A stretch of DNA of 10,798 bases from a virus. How positions within the stretch are numbered: position 1 is the stretch's first letter; each line of letters begins with the position of its first letter. The notes beneath the pieces are model-generated. The model did not search any database and was not told the origin of the DNA. It saw only the letters and a program-made list of their open reading frames with translations. The position numbers were made by a program, and so were the translations under genes. The stretch lies in UHGV virus genome UHGV-0135757; one strand, 5' to 3'. Below, piece by piece: positions 1,623 to 10,798 of this stretch.

Positions 1623-4064
1623 TTAAAAATCAGCCTGACTCGGGATCAGTTTTTGCCAGATAACTGAAACGTATTTTGCCTGGTAACGGGCGTCATCAAG
1701 TGCATTATGGCGCTCACCTTCGAATGGAATAGCCGTTCTGGCATCGAAGTCTATGGCTTTCCCCAGCTCAACGATTGTGCGTACATCGCGATCGTTGTAG
1801 TAACGCCACGGGCAGGGGATCCCCTGCCGTTCGTATGAACGGCGCAAAATCGTGTTGTCGAAGTTGGCTCCATTTCCCCAGACCTGAACAAAAAATTCAC
1901 CGGAGTTTTCGTCGATAAATTCCCGCAATTGTAACAGTGCATCATCTAACGGGATTTCATCGGTCATAATGGCAGATTGCGCTTCGCGTGATTGCTTAAG
2001 CCACCATTTAATGGTGTCCCGATCAATGACTCCGCCAGCAGTTTCCAGATCGATAGTCTTACTAAATTCCGGTCCCATATCTCCGGTTTGCGGATCGAAA
2101 AATATTGCACCTATTGAGATGATCGGGGCATCAGGATTTTTTCCCATGGTTTCAAGGTCGATCATTAGATGGTCACACGTCCTGCTGGTGGATGTGATTT
2201 CTTGATGACCGTTCACCTTAATTGAGTGATCTGCCGTCTCGCCAGTTTCATTATCGCTATCGTGATGCTGATTGCCGCCAGTGTTCTCCTTGTGTGGATG
2301 TTCAGCGCCTTCCATTTCCTCCGGATCATCTTCCTGAACTTCAGGCTGATTCTCTCCATCGAATATTTCCAGGCATGTTGCGTCACCCATCACCGCACCA
2401 CAATCAGGGCAGTTGCCGCCACCGCTCTGACCGCAGGCGGTGCAGACTTTTTCCACTTCCTGTTGCGCCACTGGTTCGGATTGTTTCGTTTCTGGCTCGT
2501 TTTGTAACGCATTTGGGCTGTTTTGTTCCGCTTTTTGGTCGTTCCGTTCCGATTCATGCTGGTTCTGGTTCACAGAATCGCGAGTCTGGATCCCTTTGAC
2601 CCATTTCGGATCATTCGGGTCGCTAATCCCCTCAACAAATTCACCACGCGATACAGCAAGTAACTTATCGGCGTCAGGCTGGCTGATATTGGCTGCCTGC
2701 ATAATTTTGTTTACTTCGTCAGCGGTGACTTTTACTTGGTTAGCGGAACTCACCTGCGACTGAGCATCCAGCGACTGCGCGTTCTGGCCATGTTCAGTTG
2801 TATCCGGTTCCATTGTTTCAGTTGTTGCCTGTTCACCTGCCATTGCGTCAGATGGTTGTGGTTTTTCTTCTTCTGTTTCACGCTCAGTAACCACCTCGCG
2901 GTTAATTTCTTCCAGGATATCTTTTTCCGGCGTATGCCGGGCAGCTGTGAGAGTTTCCTTGCTGGGGTTCTCGTGATCAGTTTCCGTCAAATAGGCGTTG
3001 ATATACCCCTGAAGGCGTCCCGGGTAGTGATAAAATTCAGGGTGTGCGCTTCGGATAAGTGCAAAAATAGCGGCGCGGGAATAGTCCAGAATACCCGGGG
3101 TTGCACGAAGTGCTGCGGACCATTCTTTGAACGGATTTTCTTTGTTCAGAACTACTTCTTTTGCGCGACGATAAACGCTGCCCGGAATTTCATAAATATT
3201 AAAATCCATCGGAAGTGTGGCTGCTGCAATCTCCACATCCAGTGTGTCGAGGGTGTGTACTAAATTCGGATTGCGATCGGTTTTGTTCCCACCGCCAGCA
3301 TTAGCACCGGAAGCCGTGCGGGTGATGCGTGAAACACGATTTCCTTTCATCCACTCTTTTGTCAGCAGACCCCGATCAGTGTAGTCAGCGTCCAGGTATG
3401 CTTCGAAAAAAGCAGTTATTAGTCCCAGGTCTGAATTACCAGGATTAGGGAAAACTTTGTCAGTGTCACGAACCAGTTTGTGGAGGTCGCGAATCTCCAG
3501 CGAGTCGAGCAGACTGGTTTTATGCGAAATAGCCAGGGCAGTAACAGCCGGTAGTTCTTCAGCCCGTGCAATGTGTAATGCCTGGAGTTCGTCGCGTGAA
3601 ACGTGCGTTACTGGTTTTTCGCTGCCGTGTTGAGCAAGCCAACGAATGGGCAGTTCCTGACCGGAGACAGGCAGAAGCATGCTCTCCTCAATCTCAGTCA
3701 TGTCTTCGCCGTTGATGTTGGTATTGTCAGTGCTGGCTGGTTTGTCCTGAACAGAGGGGGAAGGGCCGATAAATGTCATTGTGATGCCATCTTTCCCGCC
3801 TTTTTCATAGCGGTTGCAGAATTCAGTATCAAACACGCCTTCTGGCGGAAGGTCGTCAACAACGGGCAAATTGACGCGGACGGGTTTTTTAAAGTCGTCT
3901 TCATCATAATCGTTGTCATCCATTGCGGTAATGCAGCGGGAGATTGCAACAGATAATTTTTTTGCTGTAGTCCAGTAAAAACCACCTTTAATTCCTAGGC
4001 GTTTTCTTACTTTGTCATTTTTTGCTTCGCAATATAGTGCAAATTCTTCTTTATCAGTGCTCAT
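1623..4064 (-). CDS. Large prophage protein: RecE-like N-terminal region, a Cys-cluster (zinc-ribbon-like) motif, and a C-terminal DnaQ-type DEDDh 3'-5' exonuclease domain
   Basis: 813-aa ORF. C-terminal ~190 aa show the three DEDDh motifs: Exo I MIDLETMG, Exo [14 protein letters not shown], Exo [12 protein letters not shown]. The middle is acidic and Q-rich with [24 protein letters not shown]. The N-terminal ~550 aa resemble the non-nuclease N-terminal part of Rac RecE as I recall it. Start ATG at 4064 has GAGG about 10 nt upstream. Confidence 0.8.
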
Positions 4065-4157: not shown

Positions 4158-4358
4158 TTAAAATCCTGCCGGGATTTCGTTATTATCCTGGTGAATAACT
4201 TTATCGACCGGATAACAGTTGCCTGGAATTTTCTGTTCGGTTGCTGCTGCCATACATTCCTGCATTGTTCTGTGAACACTGACTGCAATATCAACTGGCT
4301 CTCCGGAAACAAGAAAAACCGTCAGAATAAGTGCAAATACTGGATTCATTGTGCTCAT
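4158..4358 (-). CDS. Hypothetical small protein (66 aa) with hydrophobic N-terminal segment; possible membrane or secreted peptide
   Basis: ATG at 4358 overlaps the stop of the upstream small ORF as ATGA, suggesting translational coupling. N-terminus MSTMNPVFALILTVFLVSGEP is strongly hydrophobic. No family recognised. The track's longer 81-aa form starts further upstream without coupling. Confidence 0.4.
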   Translation of the reverse strand: MSTMNPVFALILTVFLVSGEPVDIAVSVHRTMQECMAAATEQKIPGNCYPVDKVIHQDNNEIPAGF

Positions 4359-4534
4359 CCTTTTGGCATCAGACGTAAACGGGCCAGCATTGAAACAATG
4401 CATACTTTATTTAATAACTCCCGTTCGTGTTTTCTTTTGTTAATGGCATCTTCAGTAAATACAGGATTACTGATAGTGACACCAATTTCAAAACAACCTT
4501 CAGACGTATTAACGTTTGGTAATAACGTTTTCAT
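4355..4534 (-). CDS. Hypothetical small protein (59 aa)
   Basis: Internal ATG at 4534 has GAGGG 7 nt upstream on the minus strand. It is the first ORF after the long leftward leader. It is not arginine-rich at the N-terminus, so it is not an obvious N-type antiterminator. No family recognised. Confidence 0.35.
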   Translation of the reverse strand: MKTLLPNVNTSEGCFEIGVTISNPVFTEDAINKRKHERELLNKVCIVSMLARLRLMPKG

Positions 4535-5189
4535 TATCGCGCCCTCAACAATGAGTTTTGTGATGCGGTGCCTGGTGCCTCCAGGTGACGTTAACCAGTT
4601 AACAATTAACGCCGGATACAGAGAATCCACCCATAACACTGTTTTTGGTTTTAACTGTTCCGCGTGCGCTTAGCCGCATTCACCGCATCACAAAATTCAC
4701 TTTAAAAAGGGCGGCAGAGCAGTCACGGAGTAAAACTGATACCGCCAAACGTCACCAGAAAATTGATAACAGAGGGCGTTGCAGCGGGGTTGTCACTTAA
4801 GCGTATGGTCAACCTGACAATCCGGTGTCCTCAACGGGGAAAGAGTAACCCCGCCATACTTACCGCCGCGCCATTTCGCGGATTACCACAACGCTGAGAG
4901 CACTTAGCCAGTTACGGCACCACACTTTGTCGCGGTTCCATAAATGCCCTCATCGTTGCACCCTGGTCTCTTCCCAGGCGTCAAACCGGATCGCCGCGCT
5001 GGTTAGGCGTCTTATCAGCATCATCATTGACTTGCACATTCCGGCTACCTGGTTTGTTTGCCCGAGCAAGGAGTGGATTGTCCCCTTTAACGTCCCCAGA
5101 CCGCTAACGACGCATGTGCCATACGCCGTGTTACAACCAAATTTTGTTAGTACCTTGTTTGTTGGTCTGGAAAGAAAGATAAAATGAAG

Positions 5190-5283: not shown

Positions 5284-5976
5284 TTAATTGTGTCGTTTAA
5301 GGGTTTGTGACTGGCTGATTAAGACCTTTCCAAAGACCATAAACCGGTGTTCATTTTCGCTGGTAATTCCCCATTCACGGTAAATCTGGTTATCAGAAAT
5401 CACCAGCAGTTTGTCAGGAATCATTTGAAGTCTTTTAACGTATATTTTGTCATCAAAACCAAAGACATATATACCATCACCATCAAACTGATTGATGCTG
5501 ACATCAACGAAGATGAGATCTCCTGGCTCAATGGTTGGACACATACTGTCCCCACGAACGTTGATAACTTTAATGTGATTGGCTGGTCGTCCGCCAAACA
5601 TCGATACAGCATTATCAGTTCTGTATTCAATGGCATGAATCACATCAATGACATCACCGCCCTGGATAAGGCCATTTCCCGCACTGGCACTGACATCCAG
5701 CATTTCAATACGGAATACATCCTTCACCTGCGCAACATCCTCATTATTACTGTTTTTATATACAGTATTACTTTTGAGGGCAGAGGTAAAGAGATCAGCA
5801 ATATCAACACCTAAGCTCCTGGCAATATTACTCAGGGCTTGTTCAGTGAATTGTTTCTGCTTACCTGTTTCCAGGCGCGAGATATTCGCCGCATCCACTC
5901 CTATTGCTTCAGCGAGATCGGCGATTTTCATGTTCTTCGCCTGGCGAAGTTGTCTGACTCGGTTTCCTATGTTCAT
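5284..5976 (-). CDS. CI-type prophage repressor (N-terminal XRE-family HTH, C-terminal S24 LexA-like autopeptidase domain)
   Basis: 230-aa ORF. N-terminus MNIGNRVRQLRQAKNMKIADLAEAIGVDAANISRLETG is a classic HTH. C-terminus has the S24 serine motif VRGDSM and a downstream Lys (YVKRL), with an Ala-Gly pair in the linker (SASAGNG) as a possible RecA-stimulated cleavage site. Divergent from a Cro-like gene across an operator-rich intergenic region. Confidence 0.9.
   Translation of the reverse strand: MNIGNRVRQLRQAKNMKIADLAEAIGVDAANISRLETGKQKQFTEQALSNIARSLGVDIADLFTSALKSNTVYKNSNNEDVAQVKDVFRIEMLDVSASAGNGLIQGGDVIDVIHAIEYRTDNAVSMFGGRPANHIKVINVRGDSMCPTIEPGDLIFVDVSINQFDGDGIYVFGFDDKIYVKRLQMIPDKLLVISDNQIYREWGITSENEHRFMVFGKVLISQSQTLKRHN
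5748..5767. promoter_or_regulatory. Near-consensus LexA (SOS) box inside the repressor gene's linker-coding region
   Basis: Seen directly: TACTGTTTTTATATACAGTA matches the E. coli LexA-box consensus TACTGT(AT)4ACAGTA at 18 of 20 positions, with CTGT-N8-ACAG intact. It encodes residues NTVYKNS between the HTH and peptidase domains. Confidence 0.45.
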
Positions 5977-6334: not shown

Positions 6335-6884
6335 GCATCACTGGAAAATAGAAAAACAGCCTGAGTGGTACGTGAAAGCTGTCAGAAAAACTATCGCGGC
6401 GTTGCCGGGGGGTTACGCTGAAGCTGCTGAGTGGCTGGATGTAACAGAGAACGCTTTATTCAACCGCCTTCGTGCAGATGGCGATCAGATTTTCCCGCTG
6501 GGATGGGCAATGGTTTTACAGCGTGCTGGTGGCACTCACTTCATTGCTGATGCTGTGGCGCAGTCTGCAAATGGCGTCTTTGTGTCTCTTCCTGACGTCG
6601 AGGATGTGGACAACGCCGATATTAACCAGCGCCTGCTGGAAGTCATTGAACAGATTGGCAGTTATTCCAAACAGATTCGTTCGGCAATCGAAGACGGTGT
6701 GGTGGAACCGCATGAGAAGACAGCAATTAACGACGAGCTGTATCTCTCAATTTCGAAGCTGCAGGAGCATGCAGCACTGGTCTACAAAATCTTTTGCATT
6801 TCAGAAAGTAATGACGCCCGCGAGTGTGCAGCTCCGGGCGTCGTGGCGTCGATTGCTTCTGGTTGTGGAGAAACTAACGCATGA
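6327..6884 (+). CDS. Phage 186 CII-like (CP76-family) lysogeny-establishment regulator
   Basis: 185-aa ORF starting at GTG 6327 with AGGAGG 6 nt upstream, overlapping the cro-like stop. Sits where a cII-type gene is expected. Layout and the segment [35 protein letters not shown] resemble phage 186 CII as I recall it; needs a profile search. Confidence 0.6.
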
Positions 6885-7239: not shown

Positions 7240-8170
7240 ATTAACCGGCTATGTATGGGATGGTTGCGCAGCGTCAGGCATGAAATTATCCAGTGTGGCA
7301 ATTATGGCCCGCCTGGCTGATTTCAGTAATGACGAAGGTGTGTGCTGGCCATCAATTAAAACCATTGCCCGTCAGATTGGCGCGGGGATGAGTACCGTCA
7401 GAACGGCTATCGCACGGCTGGAAGCAGAAGGCTGGTTAACGCGTAAGGCGCGTCGCCAGGGTAACCGCAATGCGTCGAATGTTTATCAGCTTAACGTTGC
7501 GAAGCTTCAGGCTGCGGCTTTTTCTCAACTGTCAGATTCTGACCCGTCAAAATCTGACGCATCAAAATCTGACCCGTCAAAATTTGATGCGTCGAAATCT
7601 GGCAAAAAAGCGGGTTTTCACCCGTCAGAATCTGGCGGGGATCCGTCAGTAAAATCAAAACATGATCCGTCAGATAAAAAAACTTCTCGTCCGGACGCTT
7701 CGCAACCGGACACGCAGAAGGCTGAACAGGATTTTTTAACTCGCCATCCTGATGCGGTTGTATTCAGCCCTAAAAAGCGCCAGTGGGGGACGCAGGATGA
7801 TTTGACCTGCGCACAGTGGCTCTGGAAAAAAATCATCGCCCTGTACGAGCAAGCCGCCGAATGTGACGGCGAGGTGGTTCGTCCCAAAGAACCGAACTGG
7901 ACAGCCTGGGCAAACGAAATTCGCCTGATGTGTGTGCAGGATGGTCGTACTCACAAACAAATCTGCGAGATGTACAGCCGCGTCAGCCGCGATCCGTTCT
8001 GGTGCCGTAACGTGCTCAGCCCGTCGAAGCTGCGGGAAAAATGGGATGAGCTTTCCCTGCGCTTATCGCCGTCCGTCAGCACGTACACCGAAAAACGCGA
8101 AGACCCGTACTTCAAAGCCAGTTACGACAACGTGGACTACAGCCAGATCCCGGCAGGATTCAGGGGGTGA
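7229..8170 (+). CDS. Replication initiation protein (lambda O-like organisation: N-terminal winged-helix DNA-binding domain, repeat-encoded linker, C-terminal domain)
   Basis: 313-aa ORF with GAGG upstream of ATG 7229. The N-terminal HTH (SVAIMARLADFSNDEGVCWPSIKTIARQIGAGMSTVRTAIARLEAEGWL) is typical of phage replication initiators. The linker is encoded by tandem DNA repeats. Position (after cII-like, before nin-like genes) matches lambdoid replication genes. Confidence 0.75.
   Translation: MSTKLTGYVWDGCAASGMKLSSVAIMARLADFSNDEGVCWPSIKTIARQIGAGMSTVRTAIARLEAEGWLTRKARRQGNRNASNVYQLNVAKLQAAAFSQLSDSDPSKSDASKSDPSKFDASKSGKKAGFHPSESGGDPSVKSKHDPSDKKTSRPDASQPDTQKAEQDFLTRHPDAVVFSPKKRQWGTQDDLTCAQWLWKKIIALYEQAAECDGEVVRPKEPNWTAWANEIRLMCVQDGRTHKQICEMYSRVSRDPFWCRNVLSPSKLREKWDELSLRLSPSVSTYTEKREDPYFKASYDNVDYSQIPAGFRG
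7529..7683. repeat. Iteron-like origin array inside the replication initiator gene, followed by an A-tract
   Basis: Seen directly: four tandem 15-bp units at about 7547-7606 (TCAAAATCTGACGCA / TCAAAATCTGACCCG / TCAAAATTTGATGCG / TCGAAATCTGGCAAA), further CCGTCAG cores at 7622, 7643 and 7667, then AAAAAAA at 7674-7682. The 15-bp period gives the peptide repeat SKSDA/SKSDP/SKFDA. By analogy to ori-lambda inside gene O. Confidence 0.6.
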
Positions 8171-8172
8171 TC

Positions 8173-8661
8173 ATGAGTCTTTTGAATGAAGTTCAGAAAT
8201 ACATTGAAGCCCATCCGGGGTGTACTTCCGGAGACATTGCGGATGCTTTTGCAGGTTACTCACGGCAGCGCGTTCTGCAGTCAGCAAGCAAGTTACGTCA
8301 GAGTGGGCGTGTGGCTCACCGTTGTGAAGGAGATACACGCAGACATTTCCCACGCCTGACTGAGAGAGCGCAGGAGCCGGAACCACAACCAGTTCGTGAA
8401 ACCAGACCTGTGCGCAATTTCTATGTCGGCACTAACGATCCCCGGGTGATTTTATGCCTGACCCGCCAGGCTGAAGAACTGGAGTCAAGGGGCTTATACC
8501 GTCGTGCTGCAACCGTGTGGATGGCGGCATTCCGTGAAAGCCACTCCCAGCCAGAACGAAACAATTTTCTGGCACGTCGTGAGCGGTGCTTACGGAAAAG
8601 CAGCAAGCGCGCTGCATCGGGTGAAGAGTGGTATCTGTCAGGGAATTTCGTGGGGGCTTAA
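8173..8661 (+). CDS. PerC-like transcriptional regulator with an N-terminal HTH-like extension
   Basis: ATG 8173 follows GGGGG with a 5-nt spacer, 2 nt after the replication gene stop; the track starts it at GTG 8167. The C-terminal segment AEELESRGLYRRAATVWMAAF resembles the PerC/Pch-family core as I recall it. Confidence 0.6.
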   Translation: MSLLNEVQKYIEAHPGCTSGDIADAFAGYSRQRVLQSASKLRQSGRVAHRCEGDTRRHFPRLTERAQEPEPQPVRETRPVRNFYVGTNDPRVILCLTRQAEELESRGLYRRAATVWMAAFRESHSQPERNNFLARRERCLRKSSKRAASGEEWYLSGNFVGA

Positions 8662-9314
8662 TGAGTAATAAATATTGCCAGGCGCTGGTGGAACTGCGGA
8701 ACAAACCAGCCCATGAACTGAAGGAAGTGGGCGATCAGTGGCGCACGCCGGATAACATTTTCTGGGGAATTAACACCCTGTTTGGCCCGTTTGTTCTGGA
8801 TCTGTTCACTGACGGTGATAACGCCAAATGTGCCGCGTATTACACGGCGGAAGACAACGCGCTGGCGCATGACTGGTCAGAACGTCTTGCGGAGCTTAAA
8901 GGTGCTGCCTTTGGTAATCCCCCATACAGTCGCGCCAGTCAGCATGAGGGGCAATACATCACCGGCATGCGTTACATCATGAAACATGCCAGTGCCATGC
9001 GTGATAAAGGCGGGCGCTATGTTTTCCTGATCAAAGCTGCCACCAGCGAAGTGTGGTGGCCGGAAGATGCAGATCATATTGCTTTTATTCGCGGGCGTAT
9101 TGGTTTTGAACTGCCTGCCTGGTTTATCCCGAAAGATGAGAAGCAGGTGCCGACAGGCGCTTTCTTCGCTGGTGCTATTGCTGTTTTCGACAAGACCTGG
9201 AAGGGACCGGCAATCAGCTACATCGGGCGCGATGAACTTGAGGCATGTGGTGAGGCCTTTCTGGCGCAGGTTCGCCAGCAGGCGGAAAAACTGGTCAGGG
9301 AGATGGCGGCATGA
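8661..9314 (+). CDS. Phage Dam-type DNA N6-adenine methyltransferase (orphan, no partner endonuclease visible)
   Basis: ATG 8661 overlaps the upstream stop (TAATG). Catalytic motif FGNPPYS is present. Size (~217 aa) and location are typical of nin-region phage Dam-family methyltransferases. Confidence 0.8.
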   Translation: MSNKYCQALVELRNKPAHELKEVGDQWRTPDNIFWGINTLFGPFVLDLFTDGDNAKCAAYYTAEDNALAHDWSERLAELKGAAFGNPPYSRASQHEGQYITGMRYIMKHASAMRDKGGRYVFLIKAATSEVWWPEDADHIAFIRGRIGFELPAWFIPKDEKQVPTGAFFAGAIAVFDKTWKGPAISYIGRDELEACGEAFLAQVRQQAEKLVREMAA

Positions 9315-9637
9315 CGACGTTAACTCAATGCCAGCAGCAGGTGCTGGATATGCTGATTTCTTATCAGAAAGAACGTGGTTTCCCGCCAACCAATCAGGAG
9401 GTGGCAACCATGCTGGGATACCGTTCAGTGAATGCAGCGGTGGAGCATCTTCGCGCACTGGAGAAAAAAGGTGTCATCACGATAAAGCGTGGCGTGGCCC
9501 GGGGGATAACGCTTCATACCGCGGTGAAGGACGACGACAGCGAGGCGGTCGGGATTATCCGCTCACTGCTTGCCGGTGAGGAAAACGCCAGGCTGCGTGC
9601 AGCCCACTGGTTACATGAGAGGGGCCTGAAAGTATGA
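9311..9637 (+). CDS. LexA N-terminal DNA-binding-domain-like protein lacking the S24 autocleavage domain
   Basis: 108-aa ORF; ATG 9311 overlaps the Dam stop as ATGA. Residues 4-66 (LTQCQQQVLDMLISYQKERGFPPTNQEVATMLGYRSVNAAVEHLRALEKKGVITIKRGVARGITL) align colinearly with the E. coli LexA winged-HTH domain, including the recognition helix (SVNAAVEHLRAL vs SPNAAEEHLKAL). The ~40-aa C-terminal tail has no Ala-Gly site, Ser or Lys dyad. Confidence 0.8.
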   Translation: MTTLTQCQQQVLDMLISYQKERGFPPTNQEVATMLGYRSVNAAVEHLRALEKKGVITIKRGVARGITLHTAVKDDDSEAVGIIRSLLAGEENARLRAAHWLHERGLKV

Positions 9638-10029
9638 AGCTGATCCTGCCTTTTCCGCCCAGCGTGAACACGTACTGGCGACACCCCAACAAAGGGGCGT
9701 TTGCAGGTAAGAGCCTGATAAGCGCGGCGGGGCGAAAATTCCAGAGCGCGGCGTGCGCAGCAATAGTTGAGCAGTTACGTCGTCTGCCGAAACCAACGTC
9801 GGCACCTGCTTCAGTGGAGATCGTGTTGTTTCCTCCGGATAACCGGATCCGCGATCTGGACAACTATAACAAGGCGCTGTTTGACGCCCTGACCCACGCG
9901 GGTGTGTGGGAAGACGACAGTCAGGTGAAAAGAATGCTGGTGGAGTGGGGACCGGTTATCCCGGAAGGGAAGGTTGAGATCACTATCAGTAAGTACGAAA
10001 AAGCGAGTTGCAAATTAGCAACTCGGTAA
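9634..10029 (+). CDS. rusA: RusA-type Holliday junction resolvase
   Basis: 131-aa ORF; ATG overlaps the upstream stop as ATGA. Conserved acidic core DLDNYNKALFDALTHAGVWEDDSQV matches the RusA catalytic region. Typical nin-region gene. Confidence 0.9.
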   Translation: MKLILPFPPSVNTYWRHPNKGAFAGKSLISAAGRKFQSAACAAIVEQLRRLPKPTSAPASVEIVLFPPDNRIRDLDNYNKALFDALTHAGVWEDDSQVKRMLVEWGPVIPEGKVEITISKYEKASCKLATR

Positions 10030-10074
10030 CGGAATTGAGCAACACCCTAAATTTGGGTATTACCTCGTTAAAGA

Positions 10075-10128
10075 TACTGTATTTATGAACAGTGTATCCT
10101 TGATAACTATTAAAAATCGCAGTAAGTT
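10075..10128 (+). promoter_or_regulatory. LexA (SOS) box adjacent to a candidate promoter upstream of the antirepressor-like gene
   Basis: Seen directly: TACTGTATTTATGAACAGTG (10075-10094) has CTGT-N8-ACAG intact and matches the consensus at 16 of 20 positions. Candidate promoter hexamers TTGATA (10100-10105), 17-bp spacer, TAAGTT (10123-10128); alternative -35 TGAACA inside the box. Confidence 0.55.
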
Positions 10129-10191
10129 CATCCTGCATCAACGAAAAGGGAGTGCAGTCCCGCTCGTGGATAAAAATTTGTGGAGAAACCA

Positions 10192-10798
10192 ATGAATCAG
10201 TTGCTTGTAATTGATGGCGTTTCTGTGCGCCAGTACTTCGAATCTAACTACTGTCTTAACGACCTTCAGAAAGCTGCTCTTCTTGCCGCTGGTGAGAATC
10301 GCTCCTCCCGTTCGCTGGAAGTTCACGAGTTTATGCGTCGTCCTGAAACGAAGGCTCTTGTGGAATTATTGGAAGAAGAAACTACGGGAGATTCCCGTAG
10401 TATTCCTGTCATCACCATTCAGGGGCGCAATGGTGGGACGTATGTCTGTAAAGAGCTGGTCTATGCATATGCAATGTGGATCAGCCCGGCATTCAGCTTA
10501 AAAGTGATACGTACTTTTGATGCGCTTCATAATTCATCACCAGAAGAAACCACATCCGACAAAATTAAATCCGGGGTCATTCTGCTTGAATCAGCAGCAA
10601 AGACTCTAAATCTGTCAAACTCCTCGAAACTTGGTGCATACCAGAAATTATCAAAGGTAGCTGGTCTTCCTGAACTTATGCCGATCTATGCCATTGATGC
10701 ACCTGCTGATGCGCCAGATGGTTCAAGCCGCCCTACGCTGTCGCTGAGTGCACTGCTGAAGCAGTATGGTATCCGCCTGACGGCTAATCAGGCATATC
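10192..10798 (+). CDS. KilA-N domain / antirepressor-like protein (Roi/Ant-like), 3'-truncated by the window end
   Basis: Open frame from ATG 10192 (GGAG 6 nt upstream) to the window end with no stop; absent from the ORF track for that reason. N-terminal region (IPVITIQGRNGGTYVCKELVYAYAMWISPAFSLKVIRTFDAL) has the KilA-N/Bro-N-type signature. It follows rusA, where lambdoid phages often carry roi/ant-type genes. Confidence 0.65.
   Translation, partial: MNQLLVIDGVSVRQYFESNYCLNDLQKAALLAAGENRSSRSLEVHEFMRRPETKALVELLEEETTGDSRSIPVITIQGRNGGTYVCKELVYAYAMWISPAFSLKVIRTFDALHNSSPEETTSDKIKSGVILLESAAKTLNLSNSSKLGAYQKLSKVAGLPELMPIYAIDAPADAPDGSSRPTLSLSALLKQYGIRLTANQAY

Follow-up and report, generated by a model that had tools for sequence, protein, structure and literature searches.

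The 10,798-nucleotide stretch of the virus genome UHGV-0135757 that was analysed here (the window) carries, in this order, int, xis, an ExoVIII-like gene, a dicB-like gene, cI (helix-turn-helix (HTH) plus S24 peptidase, on the minus strand), cro, a cII-like gene, an O-like replication gene, a PerC-like gene, dam, a LexA-like open reading frame (ORF), rusA and a KilA-N gene (Table 1). The LexA-like ORF of 108 amino acids is the subject of this study. An initial annotation made from the sequence alone had placed it at exactly the position and on the strand listed in Table 1, and had taken it for a LexA DNA-binding domain without cleavage domain that might occupy SOS boxes. According to profile searches and a structural model, its product is a small, presumably sequence-specific DNA-binding protein derived from LexA, with a winged HTH, a flexible linker and a two-helix tail.

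The Pfam family PF01726 (LexA_DNA_bind) matches residues 1–65 over the whole profile (positions 1–65 of 65; E 2.9e-19; 69 bits at a cut-off of 23.7 bits), and the alignment to residues 1–69 of E. coli LexA is ungapped with 35/69 identical positions (51%). An AlphaFold2 model built from a 31-sequence alignment (mean predicted local distance difference test score, pLDDT, of 80) features three helices and a two-strand wing, followed by a low-confidence linker (residues 71–75) and two further helices, and Foldseek placed its first 68 residues on DNA-bound LexA (3jso_B) with a root-mean-square deviation (rmsd) of 0.8 Å. The LexA-type winged HTH which had been described for the first ~65 residues is hence supported by the profile, the identity and the predicted fold. 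A Peptidase_S24 domain (PF00717) was not found in the ORF by the same search that detects it in cI of the window (Table 1). Likewise, the full-length LexA model TIGR00498 aligns over positions 1–91 of 203 only, and its score of 70.8 stays below the equivalog cut-off of 110.95. As the protein ends at residue 108 and the S24 peptidase/dimerisation domain with its Ser-Lys dyad is absent, RecA-stimulated self-cleavage is not possible, which agrees with the initial proposal.

In E. coli LexA, all DNA-contacting residues are located in helix III, namely Ser39, Asn41, Ala42, Glu44 and Glu45 (PMC3091678). Four out of these five are retained in the phage protein (S39, N41, A42 and E45), while E44 is replaced by V, so that most of the recognition helix is indeed kept, as noted before. 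Among 132 aligned cluster representatives of tail-bearing relatives, S39, N41 and A42 are found in 99%, 98% and 88%, respectively; at position 45, 61% carry E, 26% D and 13% another residue, and position 44 is never Glu, being V, A, T, N, L or F instead. Helix III comes closest to that of LexA (RSPNAAEEHLK) in the E. coli clade (RSVNAAVEHLR) and in the Enterobacter member P0137 (SSPNAAAEHLK), whereas the versions of Klebsiella (SSSNAVLLHLR) and Cronobacter (ASPNAATDMLR) are less LexA-like. The core of the reading head therefore appears to be LexA-like, yet the variation within the family is what would be expected if operators differ between the subfamilies, and this suggestion cuts both ways. 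Since position 44 is never occupied by Glu and position 45 varies between subfamilies, a canonical LexA-box specificity of the phage protein is not assured.

The C-terminal tail quoted in the initial annotation (SLLAGEENARLRAAHWLHERGL) is present, comprises 35 residues and is predicted to fold into two helices. In an alignment of 31 diverse members, the conserved tail positions are A79, V80, L82, L83, R84, L86, L87, A93, R94, R96, A97 (31/31), an aromatic residue (F/W/Y) at position 100, L101 (30/31) and G105. A profile search of PDB sequences for a solved relative of the tail matched LexA only, up to LexA residue 74, and nothing past profile residue 77. Judging from conservation and model, the tail is a genuine conserved and structured module and not junk. 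With its hairpin of two helices, the flexible linker and a conserved hydrophobic face it could represent a reasonable dimerisation element, and the role in dimerisation that had been suggested for it can be kept as that of a candidate. The first tail helix aligns with the hinge and cleavage-site segment of LexA (EGLPLVGRVAAGEP against EAVGIIRSLLAGEE); here, residues 84–91 (RSLLAGEE, window positions 9560–9583) stand opposite GRVAAGEP of LexA (LLAGEE vs. VAAGEP). Because of this alignment, and because the TIGR00498 match reaches position 91, we suggest that the gene descended from a lexA gene truncated just past the cleavage site. The Ala-Gly cleavage site is not conserved in the relatives, which feature e.g., LANEE, LAKEE, VERES or IAEEP, and a catalytic domain is missing in cis. 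Trans-cleavage or a function as decoy was considered as conserved role and rejected, as LLAGEE aligns with the cleavage site yet the Ala-Gly pair is not conserved in the family.

The LexA-like gene is tightly embedded between its neighbours. Its start codon overlaps the stop codon of dam and its stop codon the start codon of rusA by 4 nt each (ATGA at 9311–9314 and at 9634–9637, respectively), and a Shine-Dalgarno sequence is located within the end of dam. Scanning positions 8100–10798 for promoters and terminators revealed neither a promoter before the gene nor a plus-strand terminator around it, on the basis of which a promoter or terminator belonging to this gene alone was rejected. Given the lack of a promoter and both ATGA overlaps, the gene is an inner part of the early rightward operon, co-transcribed with dam and translationally coupled to dam and rusA. 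The RecA-sensitive switch of the prophage is its complete cI repressor, by which the early operon with the LexA-like gene is defined. Consequently, synthesis is expected after induction or infection and not in a quiet lysogen, and a function of the product as standing repressor in the lysogen is unlikely. This speaks against the picture of a standing repressor conveyed by the initial annotation; an action after induction or infection fits better to a gene without own promoter.

Table 1. Position of the LexA-like ORF, its parts and further features within the window.
Feature	Position	Strand	Description and evidence
LexA-like ORF	9311–9637	+	108 amino acids, ATG start, stop included; LexA-type DNA-binding domain and C-terminal two-helix tail, no peptidase domain (ORF list, PF01726, PHROG 362, TIGR00498)
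Winged HTH, residues 1–65	9311–9505	+	Predicted helices 6–22, 28–35, 40–52; strands 56–58, 66–68 (Pfam, AlphaFold2, superposition on 3jso_B)
Recognition helix, residues 40–52	9428–9466	+	VNAAVEHLRALEK, S39 just before (alignment to E. coli LexA, contact residues from PMC3091678)
Helical hairpin, residues 74–103	9530–9619	+	Helices 74–87 and 93–103 after low-confidence linker; candidate dimerisation module (AlphaFold2, conservation in 31 members)
Shine-Dalgarno sequence	9298–9302	+	GGGAG, 8 nt 5' of the LexA-like ATG, within the end of dam (sequence reading)
Phage Dam methyltransferase gene	8628–9314	+	PF05869, E 1.1e-45; stop overlaps the LexA-like ATG
RusA Holliday-junction resolvase gene	9634–10029	+	PF05866, E 6.4e-15; ATG overlaps the LexA-like stop
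LexA box, canonical	10075–10094		TACTGTATTTATGAACAGTG; in the 163-bp spacer between rusA and KilA-N gene; candidate target
KilA-N domain gene	10192–10798	+	PF04383, E 7.1e-16; PHROG 129; runs off the window
cI repressor	5284–5976	-	HTH plus S24 peptidase; PF00717, E 6.2e-19, and HTH families
LexA box, near-consensus	5748–5767		TACTGTTTTTATATACAGTA; in the cI coding sequence, linker between HTH and S24 (residues N-T-V-Y-K-N-S)

The gene is widely distributed. It was found at 98% identity in 50 phage records, among them mEp460 (gp46), SfV (orf42), SfII, SfIV (gp43), fifteen Stx2c phages and phage 1720a-02, and in 2233 out of 5426 complete E. coli genomes at 95–99% identity, there as full-length ORF in up to four copies per genome and annotated as “LexA family transcriptional regulator”. 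PHROG 362 (“transcriptional repressor”) covers residues 1–108 with profile positions 1–106 of 106 (E 1.4e-59), and database clusters 96–98% identical to the ORF hold thousands of member sequences. In profile searches, tail-bearing relatives of 105–135 amino acids were obtained from Salmonella, Citrobacter, Cronobacter, Klebsiella, Enterobacter, Atlantibacter, Kosakonia and Hafnia. Relatives across at least eight genera share 40–65% identity, keeping the domain intact and the tail conserved, and this pattern shows purifying selection on both parts across Enterobacterales prophages. LexA-domain proteins lacking S24 are frequent in phages generally. Four proteins of ~160 amino acids (P0152, P0156, P0160 and P0164) contain two tandem LexA DNA-binding domains without S24; they would be single-chain ‘dimers’ and hence another route to a non-cleavable bivalent LexA-type binder. 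In a further protein, P0155, two LexA DNA-binding domains are joined to a PTPS domain.

In the literature, a survey of Stx phages lists the gene merely as a pfam01726 “pham” in 15 phages (PMC8136144), and neither the SfIV genome paper nor a paper on gene co-transfer among lambdoid phages mentions it. A paper on a prophage methyltransferase of Shiga toxin-producing E. coli (PMC10810198) was discarded as a source, as it deals with another gene and LexA is unmentioned. Libraries of defence systems contained nothing relevant to the gene. Nevertheless, the type of protein, for which the initial annotation was not aware of a characterised coliphage example, is known: annotations of the family are found in thousands of genomes, and with gp6 of GIL01, an activator with its own operator, a truncated LexA homologue from a phage has been characterised (PMC6182141). 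The protein is a truncated phage LexA homologue to which a conserved tail is added and whose reading head is host-like.

Which DNA sites are available to such a protein? The window contains two exact CTGT-N8-ACAG sites with AT-rich spacers where 0.13 are expected, and two were reached in 3 out of 200 shuffles; the two LexA boxes pointed out initially can thus be regarded as real. The box inside cI is found at the same place in mEp460, ST64B (76% nucleotide identity in cI), Klebsiella phage Kp4871-1 (70%) and, with one core mismatch, Citrobacter phage phiNP; coordinates in the homologous loci are 1546–1565 (L001), 6468–6487 (L008), 6462–6481 (L009) and 6461–6480 (L010). In the five-way alignment of cI DNA, ACTG and TACAGTA are invariant and the flanks vary, the codons of the variable linker reading T-V-x-x-x-S. 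In ST64B and phiNP, the LexA-like gene is absent from the regions fetched while the box is present, and as it is kept in phages without the gene, it should be at least a site for host LexA. The box could act as a roadblock in cI or mark an SOS-controlled antisense start. A scan, as well as inspection of the five-way alignment by eye, gave no convincing sigma-70 site on either strand, and a promoter at this place was therefore rejected. Since Met92 is not conserved, it is also unlikely that a C-terminal cI fragment starts internally, and a link to ymfK of e14 was dismissed because this gene is unrelated and lacks a comparable box. In the late region of mEp460, a further LexA box (TACTGTAAAAATAAACAGTG; L001 10597–10616) lies in the first codons (M-K-N-T-V-K-I-N-S) of a DNA methyltransferase gene and shares its T-V..N-S reading frame with the cI-internal box; its equivalent in L012 (10136–10155) is degenerate (GGCAG).

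The second box of the window has a much narrower occurrence. The spacer harbouring it (10030–10191) is present, together with an N-terminal variant of KilA-N, only in SfIV, VIT_AJPSC and PhiR49_1, whereas mEp460 and other carriers of the LexA-like gene feature a gap of 20 bp before KilA-N and no box. The KilA-N gene is probably controlled by this box, and spacer, box and KilA-N variant together suggest an SOS-inducible KilA-N cassette, perhaps antirepressor-like. A tie of the boxes to the LexA-like gene is accordingly not supported, since one of them is confined to SfIV-type phages and the other one is kept where the gene is missing; from these patterns, neither can be claimed as dedicated operator of the phage protein. 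Over 101 kb of gene-bearing loci, CTGT-Nx-ACAG is enriched at x = 8 only, with 9 sites vs. 1.2 expected. A non-LexA palindrome common to eight gene-bearing loci was not found, the recurrent ones lying inside homologous coding sequence or in terminator-like hairpins, so that a private operator did not emerge from this search. In the Cronobacter loci L005–L007, L011 and L014, no canonical LexA box was detected within 5–6 kb on either side of the LexA-like gene.

Regarding the genomic neighbourhood, the usual order in this early or nin region of lambdoid prophages is DNA methyltransferase, LexA-like gene, rusA, a KilA-N or Rha/ANT gene, DUF968/HNH and Q, and it recurs in mEp460, Cronobacter, Atlantibacter, Enterobacter and metagenomic contigs. 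The preceding methyltransferase varies by locus (PF05869, PF02086 or a C5+D12 fusion), and in SfIV (L016 1798–2618) a PerC-like gene is situated directly before the LexA-like gene without a Dam gene in between. Klebsiella lacks RusA beside the gene, and in ST64B Dam is joined directly to RusA without LexA-like gene. The context is thus conserved, but no neighbour is obligatory. For the same reasons, i.e., the changing methyltransferase family, its absence in SfIV and the Dam-RusA junction of ST64B, the LexA-like protein was rejected as controller of the adjacent methyltransferase. In the SfIV record, the rusA stretch 3' of the LexA-like gene is unannotated.

A direct connection to the SOS response emerged for the subfamily of 130–135 amino acids. 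In Klebsiella prophages (L002–L004 5385–6393), a near-perfect LexA box (TACTGTTTATTTATACAGTA; 5385–5404 in L002) overlaps the -10 region of a promoter. The genes under this promoter are, in order, a DinI homologue, a conserved small ORF (82–96 amino acids) and the LexA-like gene. In the Enterobacter prophage L013 (4531–5408), a promoter-like site (TTGCAA-17-AATAAT) is immediately followed by a LexA box (4560–4579), the small ORF and the LexA-like gene, and no plus-strand terminator was found between this site and the gene. In the Klebsiella/Enterobacter subfamily, the LexA-like gene consequently looks SOS-inducible, and the Klebsiella arrangement has the look of a unit induced by SOS that combines two potential dampers of this response, the LexA-like protein and the DinI homologue.

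Apart from the region around the LexA-like gene, the leftward part of the window offers two further observations. The ExoVIII-like gene (1623–4064, minus strand) encodes 813 amino acids with an ExoVIII N-terminal region (PF06630), a long, acidic middle part of low complexity and a C-terminal Rv2179c-like 3'-5' exoribonuclease domain (PF16473). In the leftward early region (4158–4639, minus strand), a homologue of DicB-family cell-division inhibitors (4355–4639) overlaps a DUF1482 gene (4158–4403).

Our preferred reading, which we regard as possible and put forward tentatively, is that of a RecA-insensitive binder of LexA-box-type sites, which is made from the early operon after derepression and restores repression at LexA-controlled promoters. 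The protein would be synthesised only once cI repression is lifted, either by SOS induction or in a fresh infection, would pair via its tail and/or via domain-domain contacts on DNA, and as a dimer would bind SOS-box-like CTGT-N8-ACAG operators. In this way, it could re-repress LexA-box promoters after destruction of host LexA, possible targets being SOS genes of the host, genes under LexA control on co-resident elements and the LexA-box sites of the phage itself. It would represent a stable, RecA-proof counterpart of the N-terminal cleavage fragment of LexA, which is normally cleared by ClpXP. The N-terminal domain of LexA alone was shown to keep some SOS-box binding and repression, and its removal by ClpXP is needed for full SOS induction (PMC10584840); furthermore, two LexA N-terminal domains touch each other on DNA (PMC3159453). 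A stable LexA domain with a possibly dimerising tail could therefore plausibly repress SOS promoters without RecA being able to relieve this repression. The enrichment of N8 sites only, together with the lack of another shared palindrome, may be taken as mild support for a LexA-box model, and the SOS link of the 130–135 amino acid subfamily, with its LexA-box promoter and DinI homologue, would count in the same direction, as would the LexA-type domain and fold, the retained contact residues, the conserved helical tail and the place in the early operon. In its most far-reaching form, the idea is a RecA-proof LexA mimic in about four out of ten E. coli strains which occupies host SOS boxes upon derepression of the prophage, shuts the SOS regulon down while RecA* is still active and silences LexA-controlled functions of rival elements; this form we consider rather doubtful. 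The silenced functions could include antirepressors of other prophages, colicin and lysis genes or toxins such as TisB.

Several points weigh against such a LexA-box binder. E44 is never retained, and several subfamilies carry D, L, T, G or I at position 45, even though these hosts share the same LexA boxes; such a pattern suggests that operator specificity is diversifying. Neither of the two boxes in the window can be linked to the LexA-like gene, several gene-bearing loci (those named above) do without a canonical box near it, and the enrichment of N8 boxes may simply reflect the control of temperate phages by host LexA. A full-text literature search did not retrieve a functional study of the enterobacterial family covering binding, oligomerisation, expression or regulation. 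Finally, the sole characterised truncated LexA homologue of a phage, gp6 of GIL01, binds another palindrome and activates transcription (PMC6182141).

This precedent leads to the strongest alternative, which we nevertheless judge to be on the unlikely side, i.e., a transcription factor specific to the phage, the LexA-derived domain of which has come to recognise an operator of its own. Such a factor would activate or repress phage genes, like gp6 at P3, but would not act on the host SOS regulon. The gp6 protein is 44% identical to the host LexA domain, binds GaCACAnnTGTGaC centred at -43.5 and thereby activates the late promoter P3 (PMC6182141). Family-wide loss of E44 and the variation at positions 42–45 (NAAVEH, NAATDM, NAVLLH, NAANDH) are typical of diversifying operator specificity, and at many loci a canonical LexA box is missing in the vicinity of the gene. 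However, an alternative palindrome common to the eight loci searched did not emerge, those that recur being coding or terminator-like, and no CTGT/ACAG spacing other than N8 is enriched. In addition, helix III of the E. coli clade and of Enterobacter P0137 is almost identical to that of LexA, and late genes of these phages are under control of the Q antiterminator found downstream.

The comparison with GIL01, a Bacillus tectivirus, is instructive in both directions. Like the protein described here, gp6 is essentially a LexA DNA-binding domain of a temperate phage without protease domain, it is made from an early operon after SOS induction, and it operates in a phage that also carries boxes for host LexA (PMC6182141). 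In contrast, gp6 stems from a Gram-positive tectivirus, has no extra C-terminal helical module and recognises a non-LexA palindrome to activate a late promoter, whereas in the present family the recognition helix has stayed host-like, and late genes of its phages depend on Q antitermination. Foldseek retrieved tectivirus LexA-domain proteins at the level of the fold only (E 3.7e-3, 30% identity).

An accessory factor belonging to the DNA-metabolism module of the nin region (methyltransferase, RusA, DUF968/HNH), which binds DNA or protein and e.g., modulates neighbouring enzymes or contacts a host protein via its tail, appears improbable to us. The tightly conserved neighbourhood, from a methyltransferase of varying family through DUF968 and Q, the translational coupling to both neighbours and the conserved tail arginines without assigned role (R84, R94, R96) would fit to such a function. 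However, the methyltransferase changes its family (PF05869, PF02086, C5+D12 fusion) or is absent, as in SfIV with PerC immediately before the gene, RusA is missing beside the gene in Klebsiella, ST64B links Dam and RusA without it, so that no neighbour is obligatory, and the strictly conserved residues are those reading DNA. A decaying, functionless remnant of a captured lexA gene is already disfavoured and hardly credible: the match of LLAGEE to VAAGEP of LexA, suggesting descent from a truncated full-length LexA, and many frameshifted or partial copies in databases are outweighed by full-length ORFs at 95–99% identity in 2233 E. coli genomes, by 40–65% identity over at least eight genera with intact domain and conserved tail, and by the good ribosome-binding site and the coupling to the neighbours.

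Coming back to the RecA-insensitive LexA-box binder, the closest relatives in terms of mechanism would be the E. coli LexA 1–84 fragment and the LexA(Ind-) mutants. The phage protein shares the winged-HTH fold with them (0.8 Å rmsd, 51% identity), four out of five helix-III contacts and, with the fragment, the lack of the S24 dimerisation/cleavage domain, and like both it would be indifferent to RecA*. In contrast to the fragment, it is separately encoded, would be expressed from the phage early operon and is a candidate SOS-box binder only; V replaces E44 of LexA, and instead of the ClpX-recognised ...VAA end it has the conserved two-helix tail. Lambda-type cI is likewise a modular repressor whose DNA-binding domain alone can keep operator binding after loss of S24 (PMC10584840), but features a Cro/C1-type HTH and not a LexA winged HTH. 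The cI of this prophage is a separate, complete and cleavable protein.

Mobile elements are already equipped with SOS dampers such as prophage DinI homologues or the plasmid protein PsiB, and if the LexA-box model holds, the LexA-like protein would be a further case of a mobile element lowering the host SOS response. DinI and PsiB act on RecA, not on DNA. The LexA-like protein would differ by acting at the operators themselves, and in Klebsiella prophages the two types reside in one LexA-box-controlled unit.

Because of its prevalence and the ease of testing, the LexA-like gene is of moderate interest. If it turned out to act on an operator of its own, it would join GIL01 gp6 as a second, independent example of a LexA domain reused by a phage as private regulator, which is of more modest interest. 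The SOS response drives mutagenesis, antibiotic tolerance, the induction of prophages and Shiga toxin as well as colicin release. If the protein is indeed an uncleavable occupant of SOS boxes, it would provide a natural template for SOS-blocking tools, and a phage-borne SOS off-switch at the level of DNA would be present in a substantial fraction of the strains of E. coli, Shigella, Klebsiella, Salmonella and Cronobacter. Such a phage-encoded SOS reset acting at the operators themselves would at the same time be a means of competition between prophages, and SOS dynamics in polylysogens as well as the timing of Stx-phage induction would need to be revisited.

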